DNA of 63,364 bases, the filler included, from Sluysia triapertura (taxonomy: Eukaryota), in the NCBI GenBank assembly GCA_046118255.1. It is 4 parts of 4 records of this genome, joined end to end, with 100 filler letters (N's around TTAATTAATTAA, not from the genome) between each part and the next. Parts side by side here need not be neighbours in the genome. Positions count along the whole stretch, not along the records: positions 1 to 26,179 come from JBJNIA010144165.1; positions 26,280 to 39,964 come from JBJNIA010025285.1; positions 40,065 to 52,237 come from JBJNIA010132179.1; 1 more part is not named here. One strand, 5' to 3'. The stretch's first letter is position 1, and each line of letters begins with the position of its first letter. The position numbers were made by a program, and so were the translations under genes. Of the stretch, positions 7,672-46,585 are shown piece after piece. Under the pieces are notes generated by a model, which saw only the letters and a program-made list of their open reading frames with translations, searched no databases and was not told the DNA's origin.

Positions 7672-7830
7672 TGTTAGACTTCGTAAAATGGACTGACCGG
7701 AGATCGAAGTCGAGACCATCGCTGCGCAGTTCGAATGCTCTACCACTGAGCTATCAGCCCCGTCTAACAATTTCATTTTCAATATATTCAATTATACTAC
7801 TTGGCACTTTATAGGCCTTTTACCCCAACA
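7672..7830 (-). mobile_element. tRNA-cored ~160-bp element, copy A
   Basis: TGTTAGAC...CCCCAACA with TSD ATAC (7668-7671 and 7831-7834). The minus strand carries GGGCTGATAGCTCAGTGGTAGAGCA...TTCGATC...TCAGTCCA then TTTT. Confidence 0.92.
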
Positions 7831-8474
7831 ATACTCTCGCCGTAATATTTTCCCGAGTTATTCCAATGTTATCCGAGGTATCTCGAGCTTGGTTCTTAAG
7901 GACTTAAGACATACCTGTTTTCAGATAAAATGATTAAATGATCAAATAAATAAGCACGCCTGTGTTATTGAACTTACGAGAATCCTCATAAAACAGATAA
8001 TAATTACTAATTCAACTCTTCTTAAAGAAGTAATTCAATATTGTTCTACAATTAATTAATAAATAAAATGATTAAAAACTTCGCCAAAAATTATTTTATA
8101 AAATAACAAAAATTAAATTATTCAAATAATAAATTCAAATTCTACCAGATGTATGGATCTTCAATCTGCGGAATCATATCAGCATTCCGTGAATTTTACT
8201 GGTGTTAATAAAATTTTTTGTAGAGTATTCCTCTTTTTGCTTTCTCAATCAAGCATTCTATCACACAAATCATCACAACATTCTTTGAAAATTAAACAAA
8301 TAATAATAACTTTAACAATTCATGGTATGGTTTATCAAACTTTATTAAGTACAGAACACAAGAATTTGATTAATGATCAACCATTATTTTCATTTACTCT
8401 GTTCAATCTTCTTTTACTTAAATTACTTCTCATATTAAAATAACAATAACCAGTAGTGTTAACATGCATAAAAA

Positions 8475-8604
8475 TGTCAGACTTCATAAAATGAACCCGG
8501 TACTTCTCGCTGCGCAGCTTGATGCTATCAGCCGCGTTTAACAATTTTTAGTCAATTATTATAGTCAACAATACCAAATGGAACTTTAGGCCTATGTCTC
8601 AACA
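8475..8604 (-). mobile_element. tRNA-cored element, copy B (internal deletions)
   Basis: TGTCAGACTTCATAAAATG...CTCAACA with AAAA on both sides. Keeps CTGCGCAG and GCTATCAGCC; the D-arm and the 3' part of the tRNA are deleted. Confidence 0.8.
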
Positions 8605-9579
8605 AAAATAGTGAATTTAATTTTAGTTTATAGAATTTATACCCAACTTTTTATTAAAAAATGTTGAAGGTTCTCATTCTCGAACAAACCACTCTACAAA
8701 CATTTCGAACTCACTTCTACATTCTCCTCTTTCATAGCAATAATCTCATATTCAATTCATTATTTTTTCAACATTCGAAGTACAAAAATTCAACATTCCA
8801 CAATTAAGAAATAATTAAAATTTGGCTTTGCTCAATATCAAGACTTTCCTTGTATAAACTCGGTCAAAACATACCTTCATCGAACGGTCTTTTTAAAACA
8901 ATTACGTACGGAGTTTCAATTTTGACACAGTATTCCGCATTCAAACGTTATTCACAAAAACGTATCTTTTATTAACTAATTTACTTTTGGACTTAATCTT
9001 ATTTAATGTTTAAAGGTGTGATTAATGTTCTAAAGTTATTTAGTACTTTTTAAGGCACTCAGGGTTCTAGATGCTTACATCTTCACCATTCTGATTTCTT
9101 TTTTTACGTCTTTGTATTAATTATCAATGCATGAAATTAATCCTTATTATTACTAATAATAATTCCATTTTTCAAATGTTTTAAAGATTTTTAATAGTTT
9201 TTGAGTGCTTATGAAGGTTTCAAAATACTTAAGGGTCAATAAGGTCTTAAATAATCTCAAGATTCACAAGTTCAAGGAATTTTCCTGTTTCAAGCCTACA
9301 TAAGGTATTCCTCAGCTCTCAACAGCACTACAGATGTTTTCATCTTCATCATTTATCATGTTCTATCCATCACATAGTTTTAATTCCTCCTAGATTTTGC
9401 AATTCCATGTTTCTTACTCGTTTTTTATTCCACATTTGGGTAATCCCAACATTCGAACAACCCGCAAAACATCAATTTTTAAAATCATACATGTTAGATT
9501 AATCTTTAATGTGATATAAGTGTATTAAAAGTTGAAACCTCAGTTTGTTTTATTTTTATTATGTCTTTAAAGTGTAAAA

Positions 9580-9690
9580 CTTGAGTCTCTGGTTATGGTT
9601 TTCTAACACTTATTATGATAAACTGGCGGTTATCGTTTAATCATCTCTGTGATAAGAGATGGAAGTGTATTTTTGCTTAATAAGGTTACA
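9580..9690. repeat. Dispersed repeat family (other copies at ~55520-55630 and, inverted, ~13160-13385)
   Basis: Shared TTCTAACACTTATTAT.ATAA.CTGG..GTTA...TAAG.G...GGAAGTG core in three places. Confidence 0.75.
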
Positions 9691-11524
9691 GTTCAATTTC
9701 TTTTCTTTACCTTTAAAATAAAACTAAGTAAAATAAATTAATCCATACCTTATTTACTCTAAAATTAGTTTATACAGAACTAGACAGATTGGAATAAAGT
9801 TATTGATAAAACGCTTTTGACAAAAATTAATTTATAAAAATGCAATAAGAATAATACGAAACGCAACTATTAATTTTCTTTACAACTACAAGTTATAATT
9901 TTGTTTAGAAATTTTTTTATTAATTCAAATGTTATTCTAATAATAAAATAATCAAAATTAAAATAATAATCAATAATAAAATAAAATAATCAAAATTTAT
10001 AAACATTAGTGTTTCCAAAATTAGTGTTAGTAGAAAATATCAAATAAACACCTTTTCTTGAATAATAAAATTGATACTTTTAGTAAACTTCTTCAATAAA
10101 CTGTAATCAAATATTGTAATAGTACTTTCAATAAACTGTGATGTCCATTTATATTGTTGGGATTAGTGAAGGATAAGGAAAAATACAATGGTTATAACTC
10201 AAGATAATATAATAAAATAGACATTGAAGAATTAAGATAAGGTTTTACGATAAAATGTAATAACAAAATAAGCACATAAAATAATGGAATCAAGACAAAC
10301 GAGTTAAAGATATGAAGAAATAAGCCTTTAAAAAGTTTTGTTTGTTAAGGTATTAAAGTGTATTTGTTAATTAATTTCATTAAAATTTGTTTAATTTGAT
10401 AACTTAATAAAATGTTTGCTCACAATAATATAATATTAGGTTTAGTGTATAATGATGAATTTTATTAGTATTTTTAATGATAAAATGTTACGAAGCATGT
10501 CGACTTAGATAACGTAATAAATAGTTATTTTAATTATTTTTTATAATTTAAAATTAAAGTTAAATACCTTCTGATATTTGATGAATATACCGATTCAAAT
10601 ATGTTATTGAACTTGAAATGCAACGGTTGATTTCTGTGAAAAATAAATTTATCATTTCATAAAATGTATCCTTAATTTAAGTTAATAAACGGCGTCATTG
10701 ATAGAATAGCTATATAAGAATGATATTAAATTTTAATTTAATGATGTTGAAAAGATAAGGGATTGCTTATCACAAATCTCATTATCTTTAGATAATTAAA
10801 AGATAATGAATTTTGACAGAGGCGGAAATTACTGTTGGAATTTAATCATTAAAATATGTCGGCTAAAAAAATGAACAGCTTAATTTTCGTCTTGCCCAAT
10901 TTTCAATCTCTTAAATGATCATAAAACTCCTATATAAGCAGTTATATTTTTGCAGAAAAATCAGAAAAAAACAAGGAAAGATAAAGAAGAAATTGAAGAC
11001 TTATCAGCTTTAGGGACGCTGTCTCAATTCATTTGTGGAAAACAGTGAAAATGAGGCTTATTCTTCAGCAGTCCGCCAAAATACGTTTTAATGGGGATCT
11101 AGAAAGAATTAGTCATCTGTTTATTTTATTTGTTATTTTTTAGTGTTGTTAATGCGAGTGCCACCATAGTAGTGATTTTTTAATATTTAGAGTTTTATAA
11201 TTTTGAAGTAATAATAAAATTATATATTGAAGTCATTTTGTTAAAATAATTAATTTTATTTATATAATAGAATTTATTATAAAAGAATTTTCATTGTATA
11301 ATTGTGATATTTTAAAGACTATATCGAGATTCAAAATTTTTTTAGTTATGGGGTTGTAATTTGATAATTTAAAATAAAAGTATAAAAGACACATTGCTTT
11401 TCTTTTTTATAGCTTCCATAGTCTCTTTGAATTATTATTTTATTATTATATCCAGCATATTACTCCAATTATACTGTTATTACTTTTTATAGTCAATTTA
11501 ATTATTTTATAATAACAATGGTAG

Positions 11525-11683
11525 TGTTAGACTTCGTAAAATGGACTGACCGGGGATCGAAGTCGAGACCTCTCGCTGCGCAGTTCGAATGCTCTACCAC
11601 TGAGCTATCAGCCCCGTCTAACAATTTCATTTTTAATATATTCAATTATACTACTTGGCACTTTTTCGGCCTTTACCCCAACA
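11525..11683 (-). mobile_element. tRNA-cored ~160-bp element, copy C
   Basis: Nearly identical to copy A, with TSD GTAG (11521-11524 and 11684-11687). Confidence 0.92.
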
Positions 11684-12734
11684 GTAGTTTACTTTAGATT
11701 ATTTGTCTTATTAATATTTTTTAATTTTTTATAATAATTTATAATTTTCCATTGTATTATTAGTTAAAAGCAAAAGAATAGTAAACAAAAAAATGATTAA
11801 TGATTAAACAATTATTCTCTAATGTTTATAACAATGAAAATTATTCTAATCTTTGATGTTAACAATTATTCTCTACATTATTCTCTTTTTTGATGTTTAT
11901 AATGCAATAATAGATTAACATTTATTCGTTACATATACATATTAAAAGGATTACAAAGGTTTTTGTATATTCTCTTTTGTTTTACACATGCATAGTGTAA
12001 TTTTGTGAATATACTGCGTAATAAAAATATTATTAGTGTTTCATTGCGTTTTTGTTTATAATTCGACCATCTATAAAATCATTTATAAAAAATTCTGTGC
12101 AAAAGGCTACGTTCAGTTAAAAAATTTTACTGCAACCAAACCCACTGACAACATTTACACTTGATAGTATGTTACAAGTAGAATCACAGCATTTAGAAAT
12201 ATAGAAAAAATTAATTTGTTTCAGTTTCTTCTAAGAAATAAGTGAGAGAAGTGTCAACTGTTCCGAATTTAAGAACACGAAATATTTAGGTTTGTTGCTC
12301 TATATCAAAAGACAGAGTTTTAAAATAGGTTCAACATAGTAAAATTTAGTAGTTGTATATATGTAAAGATTATTTATTAATATTAAAGTTTATTTGTGAA
12401 ATTATCTAAAATATAACTCTATTAAAAAAACTCATAAAATTACTATTAAAGTTATAATATAGAAAAATATAATATAAATTAAAAATTAAGACTAAAAGTA
12501 ATAACATAATAGTAAACAATAAAGTGAATAAAATAATAGTAATTAAAATTAAGAAAGAAAAATAATAACATATGTACTATAAAATAATAGCAAACTATAG
12601 TGTAAATGAAATAACATCAAAAAAGTAATTTTACTATATATTTCTGTATTGCAAAATTTAGAAAATGTCGGTATTATGTAAAAAATCGAATATAAATAGA
12701 ATCATTCTTTTCAACCATTACAGTTATTGATGTA

Positions 12735-12925
12735 AGTTGTTGGTTGAAGGTGTTTGGTATTGAAGTTATTAATCGACAATATTTGGTACTTGGTATTCGA
12801 TTATTGTTCCAGTTATTTATTGAAGGTATTTGGTATTCGATTTCAATTATATGAAGAAGTTATTTGCTGAAGATATTTTACATTTGGTATTCGACTGCTG
12901 TTCCAGTAAAGGGAAGGTATTTGAA
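12735..12925. repeat. Degenerate minisatellite
   Basis: Recurring GAAGGTATTTGGTATTCGA and GTTCCAGT units. Confidence 0.55.
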
Positions 12926-13235
12926 TAAGTAACATTTTATAATTTAAAATACATTAATATTTAACTTTGAATATTTATCTGAATAACATTTACAATAATT
13001 AAAATGTTAAATTTAAACTTAAAATAAATTTACAAGCACCGAAAATATACTACATGTGGTATATTTTATATTGCAAATATTATCCGAATTATTTTGTAGA
13101 CTTTGTACGTTTGATAAATAATTTTTTGATCGGTACAGTTTATATTATTTGAATTTTGACATTAATCAAACAAAATTGCACTTCCGTCTCTTACACCAGA
13201 AACGAGTTAACTGTAACCTCCAGTTATTATTATTA

Positions 13236-13362
13236 TGGACTGACCGGGGATTAAACCAGGGACTTCTCGATGCTCTACCATTGAGCTATTAGCCCCGTCT
13301 AATAATTTTTAAATTAGAATAGTCAACCATATCAAGTGGCATCTCAGGCCTATATCCCAACA
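13236..13362 (-). mobile_element. tRNA-cored element, copy D (ends at the tRNA 3' end; anticodon loop deleted)
   Basis: TGGACTGACCGGGGAT...CCCAACA flanked by ATTA on both sides; interrupts a copy of the 9580/55520 repeat. Confidence 0.8.
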
Positions 13363-13392
13363 ATTATAAGTGTTAGAAAATAATTATCTTAA

Positions 13393-13622
13393 CCCCTTCC
13401 CGGTTTATGCCGTATATTTACGGCATAACTAAAACTGACCAGAACATAAAATGCCGTATATATATGGCACCAAAACAATCAAACGAAAAATAAGTGTAAT
13501 CTTCGTAATATTTATAAAACGACGTCGGAAATATCTTTATACACTACTTTTGTTTTTTTGTTAATAAAAAAAATAGCCAGTTTTCGACCATACACTTGAA
13601 AAATAAATAAACCGGGAAGGGG
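13393..13622. mobile_element. piggyBac-family MITE, 230 bp
   Basis: Perfect 16-bp TIR CCCCTTCCCGGTTTAT/ATAAACCGGGAAGGGG, TTAA on both sides, and internal palindrome TTATGCCGTA..TACGGCATAA. Confidence 0.95.
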
Positions 13623-14435
13623 TTAAAGTGATTTTGTAATTAGCCTTAATCACCAACTGAAAATTAAGTATTTTGAGTAAAGATTTCAACTCTGACGAGT
13701 TTTCACTTTATTTAGAATACTTCAAACGACTTATTATAAAGATCCACTTTTTTCTTTTAATCAGCCAATTGTCATTAATATTTTTGTAGCATGTGTTCCA
13801 CTTGAAATTAAATTGCGCACTGCATGACTAAAAGTTATTTACTGAGAAGTTAAACAGTATAATTTCAGAGAATTAAAAACAAAAGTTTCGCAAAGTTGAT
13901 ATGTTTATAGTTTACAAATAAGTCTAATTTGTAAAGTAATTGACAAGTTATCAACACAACTTAATGCACAAGTAATAAACCACACTATTGAACAATGTTT
14001 ACGAAGTTAGAATGACAATACTGATATGCCATATCATCGAAACATCATAAAAAATTTTTAATGTATAAGTTTATAGCAACAAATCAATGTACTTTGTTTA
14101 AATAAATCGCTTCATTTAATTTTGCATTTTCACATTTTTTGTTCCATAAATATCTTACAAAAGAATTTCTTTATTATATTTTAATATATAGATTACAAAA
14201 ATTTCACAAACAAATTCAAATTTTATTTCAAAAATAGAAAAGCTATATATACATATATTCATGTTTTAATAATGCTGTTATATATTATTTTGCATTGATG
14301 CAACATATATAACATCTATAAATTGTCAACGTTAAAGTGCATTTTTTTAAAATCTCTTGATATTAAAGGTCACAATATAACTGAAATAATTATATCAAAT
14401 GTTAATATTATTTTTAGTATTATCATCTCAAAACA

Positions 14436-15700
14436 ATGAAATTTGAATTAGATTGTAACTTTAGAGCGATACCAATTTCAAATGATGAAAACATAAAAAG
14501 TAATGTTTTTCGGTCTAATGCAATTGATGATGGAAGTTTGGAAAGTGTATTTTGGTTAAAAGAAATGAAAAATATTCAAACATGTGTCGAGTTACGAGAG
14601 GCGAGAGAATTTCATCAGGATTCCAAATTAAATACTGTTTATGAGACGACGGGTTCAACAATGATTGATTCTGAAGCCAGTAGTGAGCCTTGTCGACGGT
14701 TTCATTAAAAATTTTTTGATTTCTTTTATTACATGAAAGTCATACGTCGCATGTATCTTAAATGGTATATTTTAAATTATATATCAGACAAATGTGGTGA
14801 AGCTCATTTAGATGAAAGCAAAGGTTGTGTTCTGAATTTAGTCATGTTTCTGATATTGTTGAGTTAAATGAATTAAATACAGAAATTAGTGAACGATTTA
14901 TCAATGCCAAAAAGACTCAAGTTATTAAATCCGTAATTGATGGTGATGCGAATGATGTGGTTTTCAATTTAATCGATTTTGAACGAAGTTTTTCCAAAGA
15001 TGAGACACCGATTGCTAGACGTTCATTAAATTTGTCTTTTTTAAATGACATTGTAGAAGATACAATTTACCGTGATATATTTTCATTAGGTATAGTTTTA
15101 GCTGAAGGGTTTTTAAGTCGTGACGAATTTTATAGTTTTGATTTTTTAAATGATTCAATTAAATCATTTCATCTAACTTATGATGATGAATATATACTTG
15201 AATTTATAAATGATTTTAATGGCAAGAATGTTATTGAAGTTAAAGTAGTTGTAGATGGAATGATTAACACTTTAAGTAGGTTAAATAAACTGTGGCATGA
15301 TATAAATTACTTACCTGATGAAACTATTTCCCAAGATTCATTTGGTGATCTTGTTTATTATAATAGTGTTTATCAGTTAGAACTGTTTCAAAATATTATC
15401 ATACACAGTGTTGAAATTTTAAAAGTTCTTCAAGATTTAAATTTAGATTTAGTATTGCACGAATTTTTGATACAAACTCAGAATATTCTTCCAGATCATG
15501 ACCGGATTCTTGAAGTTTTACCAGAAATTCAGAAACCTATTGGTAGATTAGAACGTCAGTCATCAATCCCTCATTTAACAGCTGATTATTTAAATACTTG
15601 CAATTCAAATTATCGATTGCTCAATATTGTTTTCTTTAGTGAAATGTATGGGCTTTGGAAGTTTAAATTATTATATTTTTATAAACTTTTGTGTAATTTA
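14436..15700 (+). pseudogene. Intronless divergent protein-kinase-like gene, broken by one stop and one frameshift
   Basis: ORF 14436-14708 reads on past a single TAA (KFFDFFYYMK...) and then shifts into ORF 14825-15859. Motif-like segments appear in kinase order: IDDGSLESVF (Gly-loop-like), LIDFERS (DFG-like) and DIFSLGIVLAE (subdomain IX). No HRD motif. Confidence 0.45.
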
Positions 15701-15913
15701 AATGTGAATCTAATTTTTAAATATAAGTACAATCACTATTTTGTTTATTTCTTTTGTTTAATCTTTAATGATTTAAAGGTAATAAGTATTAATCATAAAT
15801 TTTATTTCAAATTTAATTACAATTTTAATAACCACATACACCGGCCACCCAAACAGTAAGCTCGTGTATAATAACTAAGAAAAGAAATTTATGCAATTTT
15901 TTCCTTTTTCTTT

Positions 15914-15916
<3 letters not shown>

Positions 15917-15958
<42 letters not shown>
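15917..15958. repeat. (AAT)n microsatellite
   Basis: About 14 AAT units. Confidence 0.95.
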
Positions 15959-15959
<1 letters not shown>

Positions 15960-16032
15960 TTGTTATTGTTATTATCAAATTATTAAATTAATTATCAATT
16001 AAATTTTTATAAAATACCACAATTAGTTACTA

Positions 16033-16201
16033 CTATCACCAGTGTTGACATTGCTCATCACAATCTTTATTATCGTGTCAACACTGATGATGGCCAACCA
16101 TCAGTAATCATTGTTTTGTTGATCAGTTTGTTCTTTGTACCTGTCATCCAATCAGGACTAATTTTATTAAACTGTATACTAGGAAACCCTGATTGGATGA
16201 C
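16033..16201. other. Double inverted-repeat module
   Basis: Arms 16033-16050 and 16076-16093 (16/18 match), and 16143-16156 and 16188-16201 (14/14, GTCATCCAATCAGG). Confidence 0.85.
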
Positions 16202-16424
16202 CAAGCACGTTTTTATAACTAAGAGTACTGCTAAAAATAGGCATCCTAAAAATAAATAGTTGTGCTAAATTTTGTTTATTATAAAGTAAGACAACTACTT
16301 AATATTATTTTAGTAAATAATGCAAACATATGATGTTGAATAGTTTGATAAAAAGAAATGGCGAAAGGTAATTTTTAAATATGAAACTAAAAGAAGAGTT
16401 AAATCATATATTTATATACATATA

Positions 16425-16961
16425 ATGGAACTAGAAACCAGGAAAACTATTGTATTATATCAGTTATTTGGTTGTAATTCTACAAGTGATGAGAAAATTA
16501 TTGTTTTATTTAGTAAAAATGACTTTTTTGATTTCCTCGAAATCGTTAAAGTTGCGGATGAAATTATATGATGAATTAAATAAGTATATCCCAAGTAGAA
16601 ATGACTACGTTGAAACAGAGGATTTTTCAAAACAAAAAGACTATCGAATTAGACAAAAAGCAGAATTCTTTTGTCTAATTTTTCAGAACAAAAGCTGTCT
16701 ATTACTAAAAGATGGTTTATGCATGATCTAGCTGACGTAAGATTGGAACTTGATAAACAAAATATTAAATTAGATACAATTAAAAATTCAAAAGGTGTTT
16801 TTAAAGTTTTACCAAAATCAGTAGACAATTCAAAAACTCTACTGCGAGTATTTCCAAGTAATTCAAAGCATCGAAATCATGACGATTCATCTTTATTTGT
16901 AAAAGTCAATTTTCATATGATTTTTGTATATAAAAATAAATATCTTTATCAACCAAAATAG
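16425..16961 (+). pseudogene. Frameshifted intronless orphan gene
   Basis: The ATG at 16425 (MELETRKTIVLY...) joins ORFs 16450-16731 and 16671-16961 through two frameshifts. No recognised homology. Confidence 0.45.
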
Positions 16962-23119: not shown

Positions 23120-25975
23120 AAACATAGTCTTGCATGGTTTCAATATACATCGACATTTTATCATGCATTGGAGATGTTACACTAAATTTACAAATAGTCA
23201 TGAATACAAATTTAATATTTCATGTGATAAAATATTGTGAACATTCGAACATATTTCTCTCGAATATATCCATTCGTTTTATAACAATGTCGATGGTATC
23301 ATTTAAACTTTCCAGTTGTGTTACAATTTCTTTAAGAAAAGATGATAATATTGATTCGGTATTTTTCAGACTTTGACTTAAAGGTTGTACACGATCTAAA
23401 AGATTACTATAACTTACTGGACATTTTTGTTGATAGTTTGTTTGGAAAAAATAAATATCGTCATCGTTGTCATCAAAATCAAAATAATTTGTTTGTGTTT
23501 CTGTACAATAAAGGATTTTAAGTAGTTCTTTCGATTTTTCCATATCTTCACATTCGTTAGGTTCTACAAATTTCGTTTGAATGCTTGATTTGTTTTTCTC
23601 GGATTGTTTTTGTGAAATATTTTTCAATATAGAAATATCTTCAAACGAAACACCTTGAAAACTGTTACAATTTTCTGATGATTGTAAATTTTTCACAATT
23701 TTATCAGCAACAATTTCACTTTTCGTTTTTGGTTTAATTGAATTATTTTTTGTCAACTCCAAACTTAAATTTGATACTTCATTATTTTGATCAGACAAAA
23801 TATTTTCAAGTTTTGACTTTATTACTATATTCTGGTTATTAGGTAATACATTAGAACCTTCTAAATTTTCATTTTTGTGTCGATATTTGTTTGTTTTTTT
23901 ACTTTAGAATCTTTTGACGGTTTTCGTTTTTTATCTGATTTTTTAGATGATTTTCGTTTTTTTTCTTTTTGTTTTTGAATATTTCTTCGTACATCTTTTA
24001 CGTTTTTTATAAGTTGAAGATGAAGTGGTAGTAATTGTAGTAGTTGTGGTAGTAGACGTAGGTGAACTAGATGTCGAATATTTTGACGATGTTTCAGAAT
24101 ATGAGCTAAATGATGACATTGATTCAGTTGAAAATGAATTAGTTCGGGAAGGTAAATTGGATATTATTGTTTCTCTTTTTGATTTAATGTTTTTATCTAA
24201 GTTACTGTTTTTACTATCACGTTTTTGATTGGAAGCATCTGTTTCTTTGAACTTAGTCGATTTTTCTTTTTGTACATCTTTAGGATTTTCTTTATCAGTA
24301 TTTAATTTTATTGGTGGTGGTAACAAAGTTATTTGCTCTTGATTTTCTTTGGGCATTACAGAAACCTTATTTATTGGTTCGTACTTTTCTAATATTTTTC
24401 TATCAATTGAAGGATTAGCCGACTTTTTACTTTTCAAAAAATCCAATGGTTTGTTACGAAATTCTTCAAGACTCATTGGTTTTTCCGGTTCTTCAGGTGG
24501 TGGTGTAGGCGCCTCAGGTAAGATTCCTTTAATTTTACTCTCGACAGGTTTAGGTGTTTTTTTGCGTTGATATCGTTTTTTAAAATTATAATTCAATGCA
24601 TCAAATAAGCTATATTCCGGATAATCAGTATTGTTTGGATTGTCGTTGAATAGTTTACTAATTAACCTTGAAGAATCATGATTATCAAATGCTTGAATTT
24701 CCAATTGACGTTCTTTGCGTAGTCGAGCTGCTTCAATTGTCATTTCTTTGGCTTTTTTACGGTCCTCTTCTCGGCGAGCTATTTTCCGCTGTTTCTGTGC
24801 TTCAATATATTCATTTACTTTGGGTTCTTCTGTTGGTTCTTCCTGCTTTTTTATTGTATCTGTCATATCTTCTGAAACTCTTGTATGCTGAAGAAGATTT
24901 TTTAATGGTGCTATACGTTGAATATCATCACTTATTACAAATTCTGAAATATTATCATTATTTAGTATATCTTCTGGTACATCATTTAAACTATTGTTAT
25001 TATACTGGGATTTTATTTCTTCAAGAATTACAACTTCTTGAATATCATGATTTAAAACTTTATTATAATTATAATATTTGTCATTATTAATCTGATACTT
25101 TGGTGGTTTCATAATTAAATTTGATTCATGATGAGGTTTGGAACATCTAACTGTTATACTACTACTGTAATTAAGGTGTCCTGAATCTGGCGGAATTATA
25201 AATTTATTTTGCGGTATAACAAATTGAGGCTGAAATTGTTTTTCAAATGTTGAAACAAAATTGTGAACTGATTTACCAGTAATATTATTAGTAGCATTTA
25301 AATCCATATAAACATTTCTATATTCTTCATACAATATTATTACAGCACTATGAAATAATTCCAAATTTTCTCTATTAGTACAATATAAACAAATGCATTT
25401 TTTACGACCAACTATTTCATCAATTACAAATTTAAATATTTTCATAATCAAAAATTGTTTATTTTGTAAAACGTTTACTTTTGCTAATCGTTTTCTAAAT
25501 TTATTTTCCAAATCTTCATCAAATTCTATAGTTTTAGTAACATAATCTAGAAAATTTTGCTCATATAAGTCAGCATAATCTTCAAAGACTTCAGAATTGA
25601 TATCATCACTTGTTATTTTTGTTTTAGCTTTTGAATGAAATAAATTTGATATTTTATCTCGAAATTTATTAATAAAATCCATAAATTTGTTATTTTGATT
25701 TTCATTATTATAATTATGATTATTATTAATATTAAATTTAATTGTTTTTGGTAATTTTAATTGTCTTTGTTGATTATCAAATGTAGTGTTTTCAAAATAC
25801 AAATCATAATAATGTTCATATAATTTCTTATATTTGTCATAAAGTTTATTAAATCCGTCAGCTTGGGCATTTAAAATCAATCCATAACTACACAATGATT
25901 TACATTTGCAAGGTCGTATTATTTTATTTTCTACTAATCTTTTATCGTAATCTTGTTGCTCTTTATTATTATATA
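23120..25975 (-). CDS. Large intronless orphan gene (~900+ aa) with frameshifts; includes ORFs 23943-25895 and 23220-23798
   Basis: A 650-codon open frame is not expected by chance at this AT content. The frame extends upstream through IIRPCKCKSLC, and the 145-bp spacer to the 192-aa ORF is bridged by coding-like frames across A-runs. Contains a charged helix, a Pro-rich patch, a Ser/Thr run and a basic NLS-like tract. Confidence 0.65.
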
Positions 25976-27338
25976 ATTATTACATACAATATAGCATACA
26001 ATTTAGTACATATAATATAGCATAAGTTGGATATGGCCATGAGTAATAGTATGAGGTGTTTAAGAAGAATTTCTAAATTCAGCTATCATATAATCATTAA
26101 ATGAAATTGAAGGAATTGGTCTAAAAATGATAAATGGAGAAGTATGATCTGCGTCTTTTCGATTTATTTGCCAATGGTTNNNNNNNNNNNNNNNNNNNNN
26201 NNNNNNNNNNNNNNNNNNNNNNNTTAATTAATTAANNNNNNNNNNNNNNNNNNNNNNNNNNNNNNNNNNNNNNNNNNNNGGCATTGTCGCTATTTTTATT
26301 ACTGAAGATTATAAATTCTGACTTTTCTTCATTGATTTTCAAGTATTTATTTCCAAGTATTTATTAAATAATTTTATTTTTACATTTTTTTTGGAGTTAG
26401 GGATCCTTTAGAGAATTTCTACAATTGTTTTTATTAATTTTTTATTAGTAAGCATGAATTAAAAAGAATTAACACAAAAACAAAGTTAAATATTTATTTT
26501 TACGAATTTCATAAACAAGAAAATAAATAAAGTCATTCAGTTTAAATGAATTTTGTAGATAAAAACATTGAAATTAAAACATAACTAAAATTAAAATACA
26601 AAAGTACATTTTTTTTATTTTAAATACAAATAAAGATTTATATATGCACAAGCAAATATACAAATACAAAAATTTTTTCAAATTGATGTTCATGAATAAT
26701 TTGCAATGGATATACATTATCTAAAAATTCGTAAAAGTACAAACATAGCTTAGCATTTTTAACATAAGCTAATCATAATGTTAGTAAAAGCTAATGTAAA
26801 AATATATGCTAAGAGTACACCTTTTTATTAAATATTTTAATATATATTGAACAATGTTTAATGCAATACAAATATAATTTGATTGATATTTATATTAGAT
26901 AAATATATAGATTTATTTATTAAAAAACAAAAAACAAGTAAATTATGTTGACAATTAACAAATGATGAAAGAAATATTTAGTCGGACAATAGATATATTT
27001 TTATCAATAAAAGCTTTTCATTTAATTTTCGTAAATTACATTTAAATACAATCATCATAAAAACTAAGTAATGCCACATATAGTAAAATGAAAATTATCA
27101 GTAAAAAAATTGTTTTTTTTCATAATTACTTTAGTGTATGCATAATTAAGTACTTCGAAGGTATATTTTATGAATATGGAATAAGCTATTGTTATTATTT
27201 TTCCTGTAACATGTGAATACTCTTCATTATTTAATAAAACAATATTACAATGAAAACTATATTTTAAATGCTTATTATTTTTATAAATTAAAACTTGTTT
27301 AAAAATTAATTACATCTAGGAATAATATATCGCATTAA

Positions 27339-28462
27339 ATCGTGTAAACGACAACGTATTGACTAACAATTGATATTTAAATCGATTAACAATAGGTATA
27401 ATAGTAAAAAAAGACGTATCTGAGTCAGAGACGAAGATTTTTTAATTACATTCTTGCGTTTATGGCAAAAAATTAAATTTATTTAACATGTTAATCGCCA
27501 CAATAATTTCAACAAAAATTTCATTTGGATCATAATTTTATTACATAATTTAGGTACTATATTTTGAAAAAATTTAACTTTTTTTCACCAAATTTTTCAG
27601 AAAACACTATTTTTTGTGACAAATGTATATGAATGACATGGGTATGAATAAAGCTCCTTTTCTGTACAAGATGTGCCATTCATATATGTGAGACGTTAAG
27701 TTGTGTACTTCAGAAGGATACGCCTGAGCAAGTAAGTCTGAGTTTTTTGATAAAAATTACGACTTAGCCGCAAAAGTTTGCGAGGATTTATCAAAAAGGC
27801 CTCTAAATAAAAGTAGAACGTTATATATGGACAACTTCTATACCAGCTATCCGCTAGCATTGGCATTTATTCGTCAAATGGCGCATGTTGTAGGAACTAT
27901 AAGAAGTCTACGCCAAAGGAAGTTATGAACGCTAAATTAAAGAAAGGATAAATGGCTATAAATTCGAAATTTAGAGTATTAACAACAAAACATATCCGCC
28001 AGCATAAGTAGATAAAGAAGTAACAAACAAAACCACTTTCAATATGTGCTTATAATAAAAGTAAAATAGGGTCAGATATTTCAAATCGAAATGGTTCTTA
28101 TGCAAATAAAACAGTACCCAAGTTAAGAATAATTGGAATACAGTCTGTGCAAAGCAATATAGGAATTAGGCAATTTCGTGAATTTAGGTTCGAACATAAC
28201 TGATAAACTAAGAACTTCAACTCATACACCAAAAACAACTATTAGTTCTGAAAAGATGAATATTATGTCCAAATGAAAGAAGCAGCTAAGTCTATATTAT
28301 TTATTTTTTCCTACTAAACCAGCAATTTTCATGTTTTGCTTCTGGTAGGTTTAGGTTTGAAAGATATAACAAATTTATCGTTTTCGTCGAATATCATTGA
28401 CGTATATGTATGACATGGCTCATGTAGAACTTCTTAGTGTCAAACGTAGCGGTTGACGCGTT
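27339..28462 (+). mobile_element. Degraded piggyBac derivative with transposase remnant
   Basis: RTLYMDNFYTSYPLALAFIRQMAHVVGTIR (~27815-27905) and AYNKSKIGSD; degenerate ~19-bp TIRs. Confidence 0.85.
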
Positions 28463-37259: not shown

Positions 37260-40200
37260 AAGGTGATACATTCACTTAAAAAATACGTTTAATGATTTTT
37301 AGAGGGTAGAAAAAGTTTATATTTTTAATCAATTTGTTTTTCAAAAATTAACGACTAAAAATCACAAAATTTTATTAAAAATACAATAAATAACTTATAC
37401 ATTTAATCAATAAAAAATTCATATAATTTAAAATTAAAATTCCTAGCATTATTTAATTATGATTACTGAAAATTTGCTTCATTAGATCGGTGTAAAAACT
37501 AATTAACTAAAATAATTTTACGTAATATTTTATAATTTTTATCTTCTCTGGGAAGATAAAAATTCCTTATAAAAAAATAATTTATCGCATTCATGGAATT
37601 GAGAATCAGTTTTGATTTTTGAAAATACTTGAGCAGAATAACTAAAAATGGATACCCAAAATGGAATGAAGCAGCTAAACAAAGAATAAAGCAAGTAAGG
37701 AAATATGGTAAAGTAGTGAAATTGATGCTAGTTTATATCCTAGTCATCAACCAATAGAATGTTCCTTTCTATTTTTAGTAGGAAATTTTATTTTTTAGAA
37801 ATAAAGTTATTTTATTGAAAAATTAGTGGGGTAAATTGATTTTTCGGAATCTAAAGAGTGCCGTGATGAAAAACTAACAAAAATATTAATTATATTGCTT
37901 AATATTAAATCAAAGAATTTAAAGCTGATTTTAATTCTAGTTTTAAACTAGGAGCAATAAATTTAGTGTATTTTAAGTCTTCTCTCTTAAGGAAGACAAA
38001 ATTTAACCATATGAAGCTTAATGTATTTCATGTGTAGATATATTTCACCGAATAATGTTTGAAATATTCTTGAATATTGTGAGATTTCTTTACAAGAATC
38101 AAATATAGCTCCTTTGATATGTTTGACCATTCTTCGAATAGTTTTTGAATAATTGGTAATATTTTGATATAGTGGAATATTGTACGAATATAACCGTTGA
38201 CTTTTGTCACTGTATTATTTTGAAATTCTGCCATAAGCTTTATATTATTTTTAGGTACGGAATCAGGTTATAATTTATTTATTTCAATTAATATAAGCCT
38301 GTTGTTTATTTTAAATAATTAATTTCTAATAATTTATTTACCAATTAACTTATTTTTAAATGACTAAATGACGTATTAATCTTTTTAACAAAATTAATTT
38401 GTAAAGCACTTCCCCAATAATTACTTATTTATTGTTATTATGATTATATATTATTACTATTACCATTATTATATTATTTTAGATCTTAGTTTAAACAAGA
38501 CAAGAAACTTACAACTATAATGAAACTTACAAAAATTAGCCTTCTGTAAATCAGGAATTGAAAACTCGTGTATTATACAATATCACAAGCTGCATCAAAT
38601 GACAGTAAACGAGCTCGAGCTCGAACTACAAATATATTAGCCAATTTTTAAATACGAAATATTTTCTGATTCGTTTAACTGTTAATTGTGTGTTAATTTA
38701 CAAATTTGTTATAATATAGCGTCTGCTGTGGTGTAATTTTTTCATAATACTTAATAATTATTAATAATTTTTTATTGTCTAAAATAGTGTTTTTAAAACG
38801 CTTATGGAACAATTGTTTTAACATGGGCGTTACACTTTTAATATTATTTACATTTTTTGGGCTTTGCCCTTATTATTATTTCTTTATTTATCACTATATT
38901 ATATTATTATCAGATTATTATAATCATAGTTACTGTACTTAAATTATTATCGTTATTATGACTATATTGTCACTATACTTAGGACCTGACGTTATAAAAG
39001 TTATAATATTATTATTAACCATTATTGTTTATTATTATTATTGTAGATTTGTCATGGACAACGTTAAAAAAGCTTTTTCTAGCTAAAAATAGCATTAATT
39101 TAATAGTTTTAAGAAAATGTTAAAAATAATTAAATTATAAAACACTTACTTTAAAATACAATACCTTAATTAGTCTTTCAGTTTTAAATTTTTTTACGTA
39201 AAATACAGTTAAAAATTTATTTATATTAAACTAACCAAATATATCTTTAAATAGATAAGATCCAACAAACGACATAGTTATAACAGTTAATGGCAAAGAA
39301 TAATCAGCCATTAATTTTCTTTTAGATGTGTCTAAATATGGTCTGAAAAGGAAAATATGTGTGTGTCATATCAATTTTAATATTAATATTTAATTTAAAT
39401 ATTATGAATTAACAATATTAAAGTGCACATGAGTAAAAGTACACATCATTTGAAATATTATAATAAATAAAATTTAAAAAAACACTGAATCATTGTTACA
39501 ATTTAAAATTTCAATGTACTTAGTAACAGCTGCGTTGACAAAAATAAACTTAAGTACAAATTAATAATAATAATAATGATAATAATAGTAATAGTTTCGA
39601 AATTATAATTGATTAAATTCGTAAAAAAATTATAAAACAATTTAAGTAATTAAAGCAAAAGATATATTCAAATTGCATAATTATATTAATTAATAACATT
39701 TTATTATCCAGATAATAAATGAATTATATGGTGTAATACATTACAGTTTTCTATAAAAGTAATATTCGCTATGCAAGTGCTCAGACTTGCTTCAGATATA
39801 TTCATCTTTTCTTTTAATTTAATTTCTGTCATCAGTAACAATTCTATACAAATTTGCGTGTTAATTTCTATTATACAATTTCTCTTCTTGTATTTCTTTT
39901 CAAATCATTTTTATCACTTTTATTTCGTTAGAACTATTCTTAACAGTTTTATGAATCAATATATNNNNNNNNNNNNNNNNNNNNNNNNNNNNNNNNNNNN
40001 NNNNNNNNTTAATTAATTAANNNNNNNNNNNNNNNNNNNNNNNNNNNNNNNNNNNNNNNNNNNNTATTATATAATTATATTACTATCTTTTATCAACAAA
40101 TACAAATTATTATTGAAAAATGTAAAAAAATGGTAAACGTTTTATAAATAAAGAAATTCGTATTTACACCTTAAAATAGCAGTTAATACTCAAACATCAC

Positions 40201-40617
40201 AAGTAACGCCTTCAAGACTACTAAGTGACTTATTAAGATCTTGTAATAAAATTTGTTTTTAAAGTTCTTCGTAAGCTATCATATAAAACAAAACTTGATC
40301 TTTTATTTAATTTTACATTTTTTTGATATTTATCAGCTTTTTCTAGATTTGACCAGAACAGTATTGCGTAACACCTATCACACCTTCCTAAACACCACAT
40401 ACCTTTTACACCTTATCTAATTAATTCCCAAAATATAAATTTTCAAAAAATTGATCATCATTTCTACCGTTATTATTATCATTGGTGCAATTAATATTAT
40501 TATTATTATTAATCATTATTATTATCATTATTATTAAACTGCGAAAGAATCAAGCATGTACAAAAGCGAGCTATACAATTCGTAGGAGCACATTATGAAT
40601 CCTTCTTTTTATATATT

Positions 40618-40782
40618 TGTTGGAATACAGGCCTAAAAGTACTATAGAATAATGTTAGTATAACTGACAAATAAAAAACAAAATCGGCTGATAGCTCAGT
40701 GGTCAGAGCCTCAAACTCCGCAGTTGTGAAGCTAGAGGTGCCGGGTTCGATTTTCGGTCAGTCCATTTTAAGAAGTTTAACA
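40618..40782 (+). mobile_element. tRNA-cored element, copy E (divergent subfamily)
   Basis: TGTTGGAATACAGGCCT...GGCTGATAGCTCAGTGG...GGTTCGA...TCAGTCCATTTTAAGAAGTTTAACA with TSD TATT. Confidence 0.88.
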
Positions 40783-42300
40783 TATTAAAATCCTTGCTAT
40801 ATTATGTTTAATATTGCGAATTTTATATAAGCAAAAGTACTACAGAGTACACTTGTGCTAAAATTAGTGATGATATTTGCGATATATTTTGAAAAATAAT
40901 CAAAATATGTAATAAGAATTTAAAGGATCTTATTTTTTCATATGTTTTATGTTTTACAAACGTAACTGAATGTTTTAAGAAATTACGATACGCCTTTTAA
41001 AACAGTCTGGTAAAGAATGTGATGTTTTTATTTTTAATATATTATGTGTATTTGAATTCATTCGAATTTGAAGTTACTTTATCGGAAATTCGATTTTAGC
41101 TACTTGTTAATATTATGATAAATTATGTATTAGATGTTATGATTATATTGGTCTTGCTAAATTTGAACATTTAGTTTAAGACGATTCACTTTCCGAATCA
41201 TGAGTTTTCGTGATAATCATTCAGCTTTACATAAAGAGGACCACGAGTTCTATCGCGACAAATGTAGCAAACATTCACTGACTAAGGACCTAATCTTCTA
41301 AATAGTTCTTTTATTTGATGGTTAATCGAATTTTGTGTTACTTTGAATTCAAATTAGTTATATCAAAATACGCGTTAAGAGCACTTCCTGTTTAATCAAG
41401 AGTTAACTATTAAAATTATTTATATTCATTTGTGAAGTTCTATCATCATTAATTGTACCTGAGCATTAATTGTGCCAGAAACTTAGTTACCCTGATGATT
41501 TAGGAAATATCGAAATTGGTACAAATACGACAAATGATTACCCGCGATACCGATGAACTCTAATAATCAATAAACAAATAAATTTTGTCACTTGTGGTGG
41601 CTAACCTTTTTATCCAAAATTAAAAATCTTTATTTTACATGAAATATTACAATTATTAACATCTTACATTTTACCTTTCAGATCCATTAAAACCTTTTTA
41701 TATTCCAAAACTCTGTAAACTCACAATCTCAAAACATCAAATTATACTTACATTCAAAACCATTAATGTATATTTCAAATTTCATTTAAAACATTTTAAA
41801 CTCATAATTCCACACCATTAGAATCACAATTTACATCTTAAATTATTAAAGATACATATTAGAATCAATCCAAAGCATTCCAAGTTTACAATTATTCAAC
41901 ATTTAATCAGTAACATTAACGAAAAACATTAAATTCACACGTTAAAGTCATTCTAATCCAAAAAAGAACTTCATTTAAATTAATTTTACTTTTTTTGTAA
42001 AGAACTTTAAAAGAATAAGGATTAATATGTTAAGAAAGAATTTTTTTCCAAAAGAATTTCATTTATGTAATATTAATAAGAATTTTGTAGAGAAAGTAAG
42101 GAAAAGAAGTAAGGTTTGTGTATTTTTTATATATATTATTTTAATATTATTATTAGTAGTAGTATTTTATTTTATTTTTTATTTTATAATAATAATAATA
42201 ATTATTATTATTATCATTTTTATTATCATTATAAAATTATTATTATGATCATTTTGTTAGTAACAGTATTATCATTAATTTGTATCCTTCATTAAATAGC

Positions 42301-42367
42301 CTGTCATCAATCGACAGCGTAATTAAAACCATTTTACACGACTTTACGAACTGTCGACTGATGACAG
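42301..42367. other. Inverted repeat related to the 16033-16201 module
   Basis: CTGTCATCAATCGACAG / CTGTCGACTGATGACAG (16/17 match) with a 33-nt spacer. Confidence 0.85.
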
Positions 42368-42620
42368 TTGCTTAGTACGTCGGTGTGCTCAATGCTCCTT
42401 TCGTTATTTTGTTCTGTCCAATCAATCCTATTTTTATATTCTGCTATTAATTGTTACTATTAGACGTCTAATCAAGATTAATATTACTCTTTCACGGTTG
42501 ATAAGAATAGTAAAGCAACAATTTGGAAATTTGTAGCCAAAAATAATTAGTTTAAAAAAATTATAGTACCAAAAACAATTAAAAAGTTAAGTTTCGAGTG
42601 ATAAAAAATTTACTACTATT

Positions 42621-43821
42621 ATGAATCATATTAAATCCATTACAAGAAGTAATGTTAACGACAATAATGCAAGATATAATTTAAAAACAAATCATCGATG
42701 TCATAAACATTTTTCTATTAAAACTATTTATAATGATCTTGAACGAATAAATATTGATGCTTTTTCTAACATTATTATTTCTAATGATACACCTTTTTGT
42801 TCAAGAATTAAAAATGTGTCTTATCCTGAAGATCATTATTCAATTAACCATAAAAATATTGAAGATAATATGAGGTTACTTGTTGAAGAAAATTGTGATA
42901 CGAAACATTTAACAAAGTTAGTAAACTCCGGTATTTACAACATATTTATCAATATCCATATGATTGGTAACGATAATGACAATTATGATCAAACCTTAGA
43001 TCAATACAAAGACAAGATTGATTCTTTACTTGAACTCCTAAATGATACTCTTTTAGATAAAGTGTTTAGTTATAAAGCACTTCATAAAAATCAACATGAT
43101 AATATTCGAACTATTATTGATGCCGAAATTAATAAGCAGACTTATTTACTAAAAACATTATATGGTATTACAGTTTAATTGTACATAAACATGCTGAGGA
43201 ATGTAATGTGTTCAATCGTTCTTATTTAACAGTAATTCTAATACATAGCAGGAACAAATATTTAATTGATTTTACTTTTTTTGATCATAAAGTTACATCT
43301 AAATCCGTCAAATCAGTTATTAAAGTCTTAGTTAAAAATCTTGCTAATCGTAAACATCGAGTGTACGTAATTTATATTAGTAAAACTAAGTTATGTAAAG
43401 AGAATGGCATTTTTAAAAATTGTCTTCAATTAAAAAGCTTCGAAGATACGTAGAACCAGAGTATATGTATACCTTAGCGCGTTGTATAACGAAATTATAC
43501 ATTTAGATAATTTTTTAGAATTCATAACCACATACAACAAATCAAAAAAGTTATGTAATATCTAAAAATTATTATGATGAAGCTGCTATTAATCATATCA
43601 AGTCATCATTATTATTTCATTCAAAGCATGTTACTGATGTTCCATTACCTAGTCAAAGACTTATGGCACAATGCCCATATCAATCTGATATTTTTGGAGT
43701 GTGTACCATTTTCGGCAATTCATGCATGTTTTATCACAACATAGCTCAAATCAATAAAATGAACAAGAAGCGGAATATCAGAGGCAAAGACTCGATGAGT
43801 TTTTGGCATCAATACGTTTAG
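42621..43821 (+). pseudogene. Intronless orphan gene A (stops and frameshifts)
   Basis: ORFs 42621-43178 and 43208-43453 plus further coding-like frames up to 43821, including QRLMAQCPYQSDIFGVCTIFG. Confidence 0.55.
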
Positions 43822-43841
43822 TGATCTCCACAATTCCAGCT

Positions 43842-45386
43842 TCAGTAGTCTCCAAAATCATGTACAACATGGTTTGGATTTTTATCGTTGATGTTTAATT
43901 CTATTAAAGTTATGAAATTAAATTTTCGATTAAACTTTAGGATAGTTACATGAATAATGTTTTCATTGACTTTAAAAACAAAAATTATTGGATATAATTT
44001 GAATAATGTAAACATTTCATTTACGATTAGTAAAGATACAAGGTGAAACAACATAATTTATTGTCATTTTTATAAAATATTTACAAAATATTGTTAATTT
44101 TTCTGTCAAGATGACCAACAAGTTTGATTTCGGACATTCTACCATTCTTGCCAAATCAGATATTCGTCTAAAATATAAATTTAAATTTACATGTAGTAAT
44201 AAATTGTTGGTAAGACAGAAACATACCACACGTTTCGTGGTTCTAATGTGAAATTTGTTGACCTTTTGAATATCTTTGACTTCGTTGTTTCTTAATGATG
44301 CGATACTTTTGTTTATTCTATCCATATGTTGATTGAAATTGTCGTTTCCAGTTCCTCTGTGATCAATTCCTTTAATATCGTGATAATATTTGTATTTTTA
44401 CCAATCTTCACAGATATTCCTAATTCGTTAGTCTGAGAAGTACATTGTGCCAAAAGTTTGTGTAAAACAAGTGTTGTATTCGAACTAGTAATTATGGAAC
44501 TAATGATATCCTTTTTTTGCTTGTTGAAATCGATCATTGGATTAAATTTATTCCTTTGCTTTTATTTATCATAACTTGTTGCGGTTGGAAATTTGGCATT
44601 CTTTTAAACATCATAAATGCTCTTTTGACTTTACCGAACATTTGAGATGATGGGTACATTACATCTTCGTCTGTCATCTTGTTATCCAGAATAATGTGAT
44701 TACCATTTCTCACAATAATGTTTTGAACATTGAACTTAAGATCTAAACGATTTTGATAACTTAATGATTCAAATAATAGTTCAACATATGAAATATTATT
44801 TATTATAAATGATAAATTTCTGTGCGACATGGTAGGCACTAATTGTAGTAATCTAGACGTCAATTTGACTTCTTGTTGTTCTAAAGGTTTCTACATAAAC
44901 AATAACATAACATTTAAAAGTTTGTTTATTATTTCATCAGTAACATTTTGACAAGAAGCGCCGATGTGATTAATCATAACAAATCCAAATTCAGTCTGTT
45001 TTACATGAATACAAAGATCTACAACTAAAATTGCATCAATTGCCACATTCAATAGTTCTTATATTAACGTATTTGGTAACGTGATTTTAGATATAGATAT
45101 AAAATAATAAAGATAAACTAGATCGACTGCTGCGAGCGCTTTTTCTAATTTTTTTGAATCATTGGGGCGCGATTGTGGAATATATCATTCCAACATTAAA
45201 TTAAGAACATTTAATTTATCCCAATCTAATTTTGAATAAATTAATTTTGTCTCGCGATCTATCAGTGATATTATGGAATAATTACACAATAATTTCTTCA
45301 TCGTACTTAGTTTTTTCTGAATCATCATTTACTACAAAAGCTGTGATATTATTTTTAATAATTCTATTAAAATCAGATGCATTCAT
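43842..45386 (-). pseudogene. Intronless orphan gene B (~500 aa, frameshifted), convergent with gene A
   Basis: ATG at 45386 (MNASDFNRII...). Four abutting or overlapping ORFs (44534-44863, 44313-44537, 44017-44325, 43842-44054) form one chain. Confidence 0.6.
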
Positions 45387-46352
45387 ATTGTAGGGAAATT
45401 TTAAAGTTTTTGACTTACTATGACGAGTAAATGTTTCATATGATGTTAATAAAATTAATGTCGAAAACTCAACAATGTATTGACACTGATAAGGTATGCT
45501 TACCTATTCACATACTTTTACATTACTATCACTAAATTTTAATTGATGTAACATTGGTAAGACTAAATATAAAATAAAATCTTTTTGAGCTTGATTATTA
45601 CATTTTGGTTATTATACTTGATTACCCTTGGTTATTACATTTTTCTTCTAATTACATCAATAATGCATGTAATGCTTCAAGTACATAAGTTTTATCTATT
45701 CATTAGGCACAGGAATCATCTTTTTATTGATGAATAAATTATAAGTACGACACAAAATATGAGTAATGGCCTTTACTGTCCGCTGACCACGTTAACTGTG
45801 CGTTGTCGGTAGAGAAAAGGGTGATGTTTTATTATATTAAGTTTTATGTTTAATTTATTACTTTCAATTTTTTTTAATTTCACTAACATGATCTTTCTTT
45901 TTATCTACACTTATGCAATTAACTTATTATATAATTTTTCTTTTCAGTCAAATAACACCATCTTCATTACATTTTACCTTGTGTTCATTATGCAGACGAC
46001 CAATTCACAAATACTATGCAATAGCACCGTCTTCATTTCCGCTGTCTTTACTTTTTATTCGATACTGCCCAAACTCCTTTGCCTTCTTGCCCCATGTGCC
46101 AAGTCACGACTGAAGAATGTGATATTTACTTAGAAAAGTTTTTCGGAGGAGTTACGAGTTTACTGTAAAAATATACGAGATCCGATTCCAATACTGTTGT
46201 AGCTTATAACGGACTCCAGGAGAACGCTTTCAACTTCCTACTGTTTCTGAGGTTCAAATTTTGTAAAACGGATTTCAGCTGCCAAAACCTGATTATCCGC
46301 CGGAATTGACTAGATCACAAAAGCGTAACTACAGAAGACGCCAACTTAAAAG

Positions 46353-46512
46353 TGTTAGGGTAAAAGGCCTAAAATGTGCCAAGTAGTATAATTGAATATA
46401 TTAAAAATGAAATTGTTAGACGGGGTTGATAGCTCAGTGGTAGAGCAGACGGACTGCGCAGACGTTGGTCCCGGGTTCGATCCCCGGTCAGTCCATTTTA
46501 CGAAGTCTAACA
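46353..46512 (+). mobile_element. tRNA-cored ~160-bp element, copy F
   Basis: TGTTAGGG...GTCTAACA with TSD AAAG (46349-46352 and 46513-46516). Confidence 0.93.
46423..46495 (+). ncRNA. tRNA-Cys-derived tRNA-like Pol III cassette inside copy F (not a canonical tRNA)
   Basis: Acceptor GGGTTGA/TCAGTCC, D-arm GCTC/GAGC and T-arm CCGGG/CCCGG; A box TAGCTCAGTGG, B box GGTTCGATCC and TTTT directly downstream. The anticodon arm has only 4 bp and an enlarged loop. Confidence 0.8.
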
Positions 46513-46585
46513 AAAGATTGTGTAACAATCTCTTTTTGAAGTGTAAATAGTTATCTCCTAAATATTATTATTTATTATAACATAT

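Follow-up and report, generated by a model that had tools for sequence, protein, structure and literature searches.

Dispersed 160-bp elements with a tRNA-like module in DNA of Sluysia triapertura: probable solo long terminal repeats of a Helenus-type miniature retrotransposon

Six short dispersed elements, each built around a tRNA-like gene of the RNA polymerase III (Pol III) type and each flanked by a 4-bp target-site duplication (TSD), are present in a stretch of 63,364 nucleotides from the genome assembly of Sluysia triapertura (GCA_046118255.1; the whole stretch is called the window below, and all positions count along it), and the question that they raise is which kind of mobile element unites these features. 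The first-pass annotation of the window left the choice between solo long terminal repeats (LTRs) of a Helenus-like terminal-repeat retrotransposon in miniature (TRIM) and a miniature inverted-repeat transposable element (MITE) mobilised by a Ginger transposase, and pointed out that a unit moving as a monomer would be of a type that it did not recognise. Results of our analysis favour, with a probability of about 0.68, the assignment of the six elements as solo LTRs of a Helenus-type TRIM. The family is likely not a new type of element but a new family within a known kind, its membership resting on the features of the LTR.

The window is AT-rich eukaryotic DNA (24.8% GC). Four copies are on its minus strand: copies 1 (7672..7830) and 3 (11525..11683), both of 159 bp and 97% identical to each other, represent a variant of subfamily A with an altered T arm and B box, while copies 2 (8475..8604, 130 bp) and 4 (13236..13362, 127 bp) form subfamily B. 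On the plus strand are copy 5 (40618..40782, 165 bp), which represents subfamily C and has a longer anticodon arm, and copy 6 (46353..46512, 160 bp), a member of subfamily A in which the A and B boxes are intact. A profile built from the six copies recovered exactly these six in the window (E values 3e-51 to 7e-28), at the positions and on the strands at which they had first been annotated, and detected no seventh copy there; relaxed searches with the element ends revealed no orphan ends elsewhere in the window. The copies align over 171 columns with a mean column identity of 76%. Where at least two subfamilies had been proposed, three can be distinguished, with identities of 91-97% within subfamily A and 80% within subfamily B. 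The copies decayed later through small deletions: copy 2 lost most of the D arm with the A box and, in a second internal deletion, the 3' half of the T arm with the acceptor strand, and copy 4 lost the anticodon arm and its 3' 17 nt. The host site of copy 2 is another high-copy repeat, and that of copy 4 belongs to a second repeat family.

Each copy has, as described earlier, its own exact 4-bp duplication, and in none of the six does the match extend to 5 bp. The six words, all different, read on the plus strand ATAC for copy 1 (7668-7671 and 7831-7834), AAAA for copy 2, GTAG for copy 3, ATTA for copy 4, TATT for copy 5, and AAAG for copy 6 (46349-46352 and 46513-46516). With the ends taken as given, a 4-mer match at the spacing of the element is found by chance at 1.0% of random window sites, which for six copies yields about 1e-12. 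The left end is TGTT in all copies and the right end is ACA in five, being deleted in the sixth, so that the termini are of the TG..CA type. The earlier assignment of TGT...AACA ends to five copies stands for four of them; copy 2 ends with GACA, and copy 4 lacks this end. A generic scan for TGT..ACA with a 4-bp duplication gave 96 candidates in the window, mostly chance ones. In AT-rich DNA, ends and a TSD thus prove little alone, and it is their match with the limits of the shared sequence that counts.

Contigs of two public sequencing runs (X1 and X2) were aligned to positions 8300-13700, which include three of the six copies. The contigs are short, and the view that they offer comprises 15 of 697 joints and 12 of 3201 loose ends. 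In unique flanks, X1 hardly differs from the window, four pieces with lengths of 198-698 letters showing 0-1 differences, and X2 has a small share of words in common with the test stretch. In the case of copy 2, a joint from 8469 to 8604 reveals an empty site, as it skips 134 letters, equal to the element (130) and one duplication (4); a joint from 8447 to 8604 is present in six further contigs, and 122 contigs depart at 8475 with letters similar to those of the right flank. A near-exact empty site of copy 4 is represented by six contigs with a joint from 13228 to 13363, where the 134 skipped letters correspond to 127 of the element, 4 of the duplication, and 3 of an extra TTA unit in the window. 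A single-copy X1 contig matches the right flank of copy 3 from exactly 11684 and is preceded there by 23 unaligned letters, which hints at an allele without the insertion. Since empty sites are seen at two copies, the six copies are true insertions, and they are insertions of a high-copy family. Summed contig depth, which is not a copy number, is 1.2e6 at position 11588 as compared with 14-26 for single-copy pieces and, with up to 31-fold over-counting allowed for, suggests a family size of thousands or more.

A full copy starts with TGTT, continues with an AT-rich part of about 70 bp in which AGGCC stands near +12 (at about this position in all six copies), and then has the tRNA-like module, a T4 run, and 13 nt of tail sequence that terminate in ACA. 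In copy 6 the AT-rich 5' part, starting with TGTT and possibly U3-like, is at 46353..46422 (+), the tRNA-like module at 46423..46495 (+), with the A box at 46430-46440 and the B box at 46474-46483, and the T4 run, similar to a Pol III terminator, together with the possibly U5-like tail ending with AACA, at 46496..46512 (+). The last 8 nt of this copy are the reverse complement of 46414-46421, directly before the module, a trait of subfamily A. The location of the tRNA cassette in the 3' half, which had been noted before, is confirmed by the start of the module at about +70. Its A box contains TAGCT in all six copies, followed by TGG in five, and its B box contains GGTTC in three (40618, 46353, and, up to the deletion, 8475), being altered in the other copies. 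The Rfam tRNA model scores above its cut-off of 29 bits in four of the six copies (33-47 bits), among them copy 1 (33.1 bits, 7689-7760), copy 3 (37 bits, 11542-11614), and copy 6 (47.3 bits); copy 5 stays under it (26.4 bits), and the doubly deleted copy 2 gives no match. ARAGORN calls a tRNA in two of the six, one of them copy 5, in both cases tRNA-Arg. As the anticodon loop has 10-11 nt, no isotype is meaningful and the modules are not working tRNAs; the proposed likeness to tRNA-Cys is not confirmed, the Rfam match being to tRNA in general. Between subfamilies, the 5' parts are 54-71% identical, the tRNA modules 68-84%, and the tails 82-88%. This better conservation of module and tail than of the 5' part is in keeping with a Pol III module that has a role in copying.

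An ordinary tRNA-derived short interspersed element (SINE), or a set of dispersed tRNA pseudogenes, would likewise contain a tRNA-like module and its A and B boxes. TSDs of SINEs vary in length, and here the TSD is fixed at 4 bp in all six copies. Moreover, 70 bp of shared sequence lie upstream of the tRNA, the TG..CA ends are fixed, and 5' truncation is absent. The 3' end is a fixed AACA with no tail, and no tandem array overlies any of the six copies, in agreement with the earlier description. This explanation is therefore extremely improbable, and the original view of the elements as something other than ordinary SINEs is supported.

The ends and the TSD length also bear on the second branch of the original alternative, a non-autonomous DNA transposon moved whole by a Ginger2-like transposase with the tRNA module as its cargo. 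TGTNR ends and 4-bp TSDs are features of Ginger elements (PMC2836005), the left ends of subfamily A agree at 11-13 of 16 positions with the terminal inverted repeat (TIR) of Ginger2 MITEs, and movement as a MITE would account both for the singletons and for the spread of the variant with the altered B box. The reported TIRs are of 40-270 bp in Ginger1, which inserts at CCGG/CCGT sites, and of 50-180 bp in Ginger2, with the target RTATAY (PMC2836005), and Ginger2 MITEs have a 16-bp TIR and AT-rich, TATA-like 4-bp sites (PMC3845634). The perfect TIR of the five complete copies, however, has only 3-6 bp, and their left and right ends agree with each other at 4-7 of 16 positions. The right ends match the Ginger2 MITE TIR at 7 of 16 positions and the left ends of subfamilies B and C at 8-9 of 16, whereas seven unrelated TGT sites of the window score 12-14 of 16. 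None of the six target sites fits RTATAY, CCGG/CCGT, or KHTM, and one fits WRTH (background 16%). The better conservation of the tRNA module than of the 5' part would also be left unexplained. Failing on both TIR length and target site, a Ginger-mobilised MITE is an unlikely identity for these elements.

The interpretation of the six copies as solo LTRs of a Helenus-type TRIM, the other branch of the original alternative, agrees with every feature that could be tested. The parent element would consist of two LTRs separated by a short spacer carrying a primer-binding site (PBS) as well as a polypurine tract (PPT), about 400-450 bp in all. Pol III would transcribe it from the A and B boxes of the 5' LTR, and the transcript would pass the weak T4 run and terminate in the 3' LTR at its T run. 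This RNA would then be packaged and reverse-transcribed by a helper of the Gypsy type, whose integrase would insert the resulting DNA at a target cut with a stagger of 4 bp; the two LTRs would finally recombine and leave a single LTR within the original duplication. We infer the two-LTR parent, its transcription, and the helper from the account of Helenus elements by Kojima (2024, PMC10886601), in which they are themselves inferential with the exception of Cassandra.

The occurrence of all six copies as singletons, with no paired LTR, PBS, or PPT, had been put forward as a sign of novelty. It is a weak argument. According to the counts in Table S3 of PMC10886601, the median solo fraction is 0.76 in 11 animal Helenus families and 0.79 in 39 families (those of the 41 in the table with both solo and full counts), and six solos out of six would have a P value above 0.05 in 27 of the 39 families and in 7 of the 11 animal ones. 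Solo-to-full ratios of up to 111 have been reported for sugar-beet TRIMs (PMC13570524). The absence of the pairing as such was correctly noted: neither a paired copy nor a PBS-like TGG or purine tract lies beside any of the six copies, the lack of PBS and PPT being expected for solos.

This lack of pairs nevertheless belongs to a series of points that weigh against the assignment as solo Helenus LTRs. In the remaining 4 of the 11 animal Helenus families of Table S3, the chance of finding all six copies solo would be under 0.05. No joint of an element end to an element start is present among the 15 of 697 joints in view, where the contigs are short, and no agreeing sequence follows the 3' terminus in seven X2 contigs (agreement 0.53; 12 of 3201 loose ends). 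A scan of 74 open reading frames (ORFs) of the window matched no reverse transcriptase or integrase family, those of Gypsy included, but only pieces of piggyBac-type transposases. Covariation among the six copies does not exceed that of shuffled sequences, and the folding z-scores of the modules are just -0.4 to -1.0. Copies 1 and 3, separate insertions of which copy 3 may be young, share the altered B box, which counts against the assignment since a damaged promoter should copy poorly via RNA; neither the spread of this variant nor the read-through of the T4 run is explained by it. In the T arm, at the loose end 11573 (73 contigs), most X1 contigs part from copy 3 and lead to an intact B box, so that copies 1 and 3 represent a minority variant.

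The same LTR features would result if the elements were solo LTRs of an autonomous or otherwise large Gypsy element whose LTR had taken up a tRNA-derived SINE, the module being a passenger rather than the promoter from which copying starts: ends, TSD, and solo structure would be identical, and the insertion of a SINE into an LTR is in fact the origin proposed by Kojima for such modules (PMC10886601). What makes this very unlikely is that the module, conserved in the three subfamilies, takes up half of a very short LTR, and that no Gypsy coding remnant occurs among the 74 scanned ORFs of the window. Helenus LTRs have also been reported to lack long sequence in common with autonomous LTRs (PMC10886601).

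Another possibility is a monomeric retroelement with no two-LTR parent, in which a single unit would be copied via Pol III RNA, for instance from tandem arrays or circles, and would depend on an LTR-type integrase for its insertion. All six copies are singletons with intact TSDs, the copy at 11525 is possibly young, the module is conserved, and in subfamily A the 3' end can pair with the stretch directly before the tRNA. Such an element would need a primer site, and none is recognisable; its 70-bp 5' part could not be rebuilt from a transcript starting at the tRNA, singletons are common among TRIM families, and our literature searches gave no precedent. We consider this mode of movement, too, very unlikely.

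The enlarged anticodon loop contains a palindrome, CTGCGCAG, located in copy 6 at 46454..46461 (+). It is present in four of the six copies (46454, 7722, 8510, and 11576), has one mismatch in copy 5, and is deleted in copy 4; as RNA, its self-pairing is computed at -13.5 kcal/mol. Inspection by eye of the supplement of PMC10886601 identified a self-complementary loop word of at least 4 nt in 25 of 26 fungal LTRs (part 1) and in 24 of 34 LTRs of part 5, whereas part 7 is mixed, with such words in none of three brachiopod LTRs and absent from two of three nemertean ones. The words vary by lineage (CTAG, CATG, GTAC, CCGG, and longer ones). Palindromic loops would give mostly AGN, TGN, and CTA anticodons in the false tRNA calls of Table 2 of that paper, where seven of eight anticodon types begin with AG or TG or are CTA. 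Dimerisation of Ty1 RNA is reportedly initiated by kissing loops (PMC5454406).

Tentatively, the palindromic loop may pair two RNAs for packaging and be a general dimer signal of Helenus elements. The main text of PMC10886601, as far as available, contains no match to "palindrom", "dimer", or "kissing", and literature searches found no paper linking Helenus loops with RNA dimers, so that such a signal would be a previously unreported one. Several observations make it rather doubtful. The Helenus families compared are related, not independent, and it is normal for a tRNA to have CT in front of an AG anticodon. The loop of tRNA-Cys is already a 6-nt palindrome. A palindrome of at least 8 nt occurs somewhere in 17-25% of shuffled modules, the anticodon hairpin is absent from the predicted structures, and the six copies offer no covariation in its favour. 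The combined proposal of a 160-bp unit that moves as a monomer, with a tRNA promoter, LTR-type ends, an integrase, no two-LTR parent, and the palindromic loop as its RNA pairing signal, is in our opinion unlikely.

The neighbourhood of the copies is rich in other repeats. The second repeat family, which hosts copy 4, is present at 9492-9700 (+), 55432-55650 (+), and 13120-13387 (-) and consists of a unit of about 118 bp with TGTTAGA..TCTAACA ends, followed by a conserved stretch of 60-100 bp. Its last 7 letters are those of the 3' end of the element, and the family may represent the LTR and leader sequence of a related LTR element, perhaps a helper lineage. The sequence flanking copy 3 on its 3' side (11500-11524) resembles the host repeat of copy 2 (8430-8457), and two X1 contigs join a flank of the host-repeat type to the element 3' end (joint 8447 to 11525), which may reflect a nested insertion or be a hint of a shared internal region. 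Very high-copy X1 repeats occupy 8300-9030 and 10290-10650 (summed depth 2-4e5), each without a second copy in the window. A piggyBac-type MITE at about 13389-13626, flanked by TTAA at either end and with termini that are inverted repeats of about 16 bp, is multi-copy in X1, and broken pieces of piggyBac-type transposases (PF13843) are encoded at 53444-54324 (+) and 27728-27925 (+).

Directly left of copy 6, at 46000-46350 (+), lies a GC-richer remnant with a cysteine/histidine motif and no Pfam match, which we take to resemble the C-terminal zinc knuckle of a non-LTR retrotransposon. Short frames at 3891-4231 (+), also with no Pfam match, presumably resemble a decayed mariner transposase. A 677-codon open frame at 23946-25976 (-) matches no Pfam family, and a word-based search found no homologue for it. 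A copy of the importin-5 gene at about 56100-57200 (-), with no evident introns but with frameshifts and stops, is likely a processed pseudogene and is closer to the human than to the yeast sequence. A piece of RSPH9 (radial spoke head 9) at 46926-47396 (-), either a gene or a decayed copy, is 28-59% identical to its HMMER matches (50% for the best one), and of the ten examined, those with a named source are all from animals, scattered ones. Judged by their sequences, these two pieces suggest that the host is an animal bearing motile cilia. Three word-based protein searches and the Atlas gave no indication of the host. The 100-letter gaps at 26180-26279, 39965-40064, and 52238-52337, each with a central 12-letter all-frame stop spacer, are artefacts and not biology.

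If the elements are indeed solo LTRs of a Helenus-type TRIM, they add a very abundant family to this group, with about one copy per 10 kb here, and the host group may be one not yet listed for Helenus. In such a case tRNA finders will report too many genes when run on this genome. The density of the family makes an experimental test of Pol III use by Helenus easy, and the pattern of palindromic loops provides a cheap, testable idea for the packaging of such elements. A new kind of mobile element would be at hand only if no paired form exists.

Among known systems, Troyka, as described with its 3-bp TSD and CG ends, and IS481EU, described from parabasalids, were ruled out. The element pattern has no match in the metagenome contigs or in the viral contigs searched, and two metagenome matches to a shorter pattern are due to chance, being located in DNA of 61% GC without the element. 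SINE2 elements share with our elements an internal Pol III promoter of tRNA origin but start at the tRNA head and end in a tail similar to that of long interspersed elements (PMC10886601). Ginger1 and Ginger2 share the TGTNR termini and the 4-bp TSD but differ in requiring TIRs of 16 bp (MITEs) to 40-270 bp and in preferring CCGG/CCGT or TATA-like sites, both of which are lacking here. Cassandra and Ajax resemble our elements in having a Pol III module inside the LTR; their module, unlike ours, is derived from 5S rRNA and not from tRNA, and the TSD of Ajax has 5 bp (PMC10886601, PMC7215508). Cassandra is also the sole validated case of transcription from a Pol III module of an LTR (PMC10886601, PMC7215508).

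The closest relationship appears to be that to Helenus, a group of TRIMs described as having LTRs that contain a tRNA-like sequence and, between the two LTRs, a PBS and a PPT; their use of Pol III is without experimental test (PMC10886601). The two-LTR form is the point of difference, as none of the six copies of the window is paired; several listed Helenus families, though, have no known internal part and are represented by solo LTRs only (PMC10886601). Four diagnostic motifs of our element have no match in the supplement of that paper, in which line breaks can hide matches, and as far as this motif search tells, the element is probably not one of the listed families. Its TGTT..AACA ends and, by eye, the 3' end of its T arm and acceptor strand look closer to those of some fungal Helenus LTRs (for example Helenus-1_AmAr), which differ in their 5-bp TSDs. 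In animal Helenus elements, on the other hand, the TSDs have 4 bp and the PBSs are Gypsy-like (PMC10886601). The length of 159-165 bp, with no coding capacity, falls inside the range known for Helenus LTRs, which is 104-193 bp in bivalves and 104-323 bp for the animal entries of Table S1, and the order of TGT, 5' part, tRNA, T run, short tail, and ACA is that of the LTRs in DataS1 (parts 1, 5, and 7). With animal Helenus elements (TRIMp3), such as the bivalve and nemertean families, our elements share a tRNA module that lies in the 3' half and contains A and B boxes, the 4-bp TSD, the non-functional anticodon arm, and the frequent solo copies.

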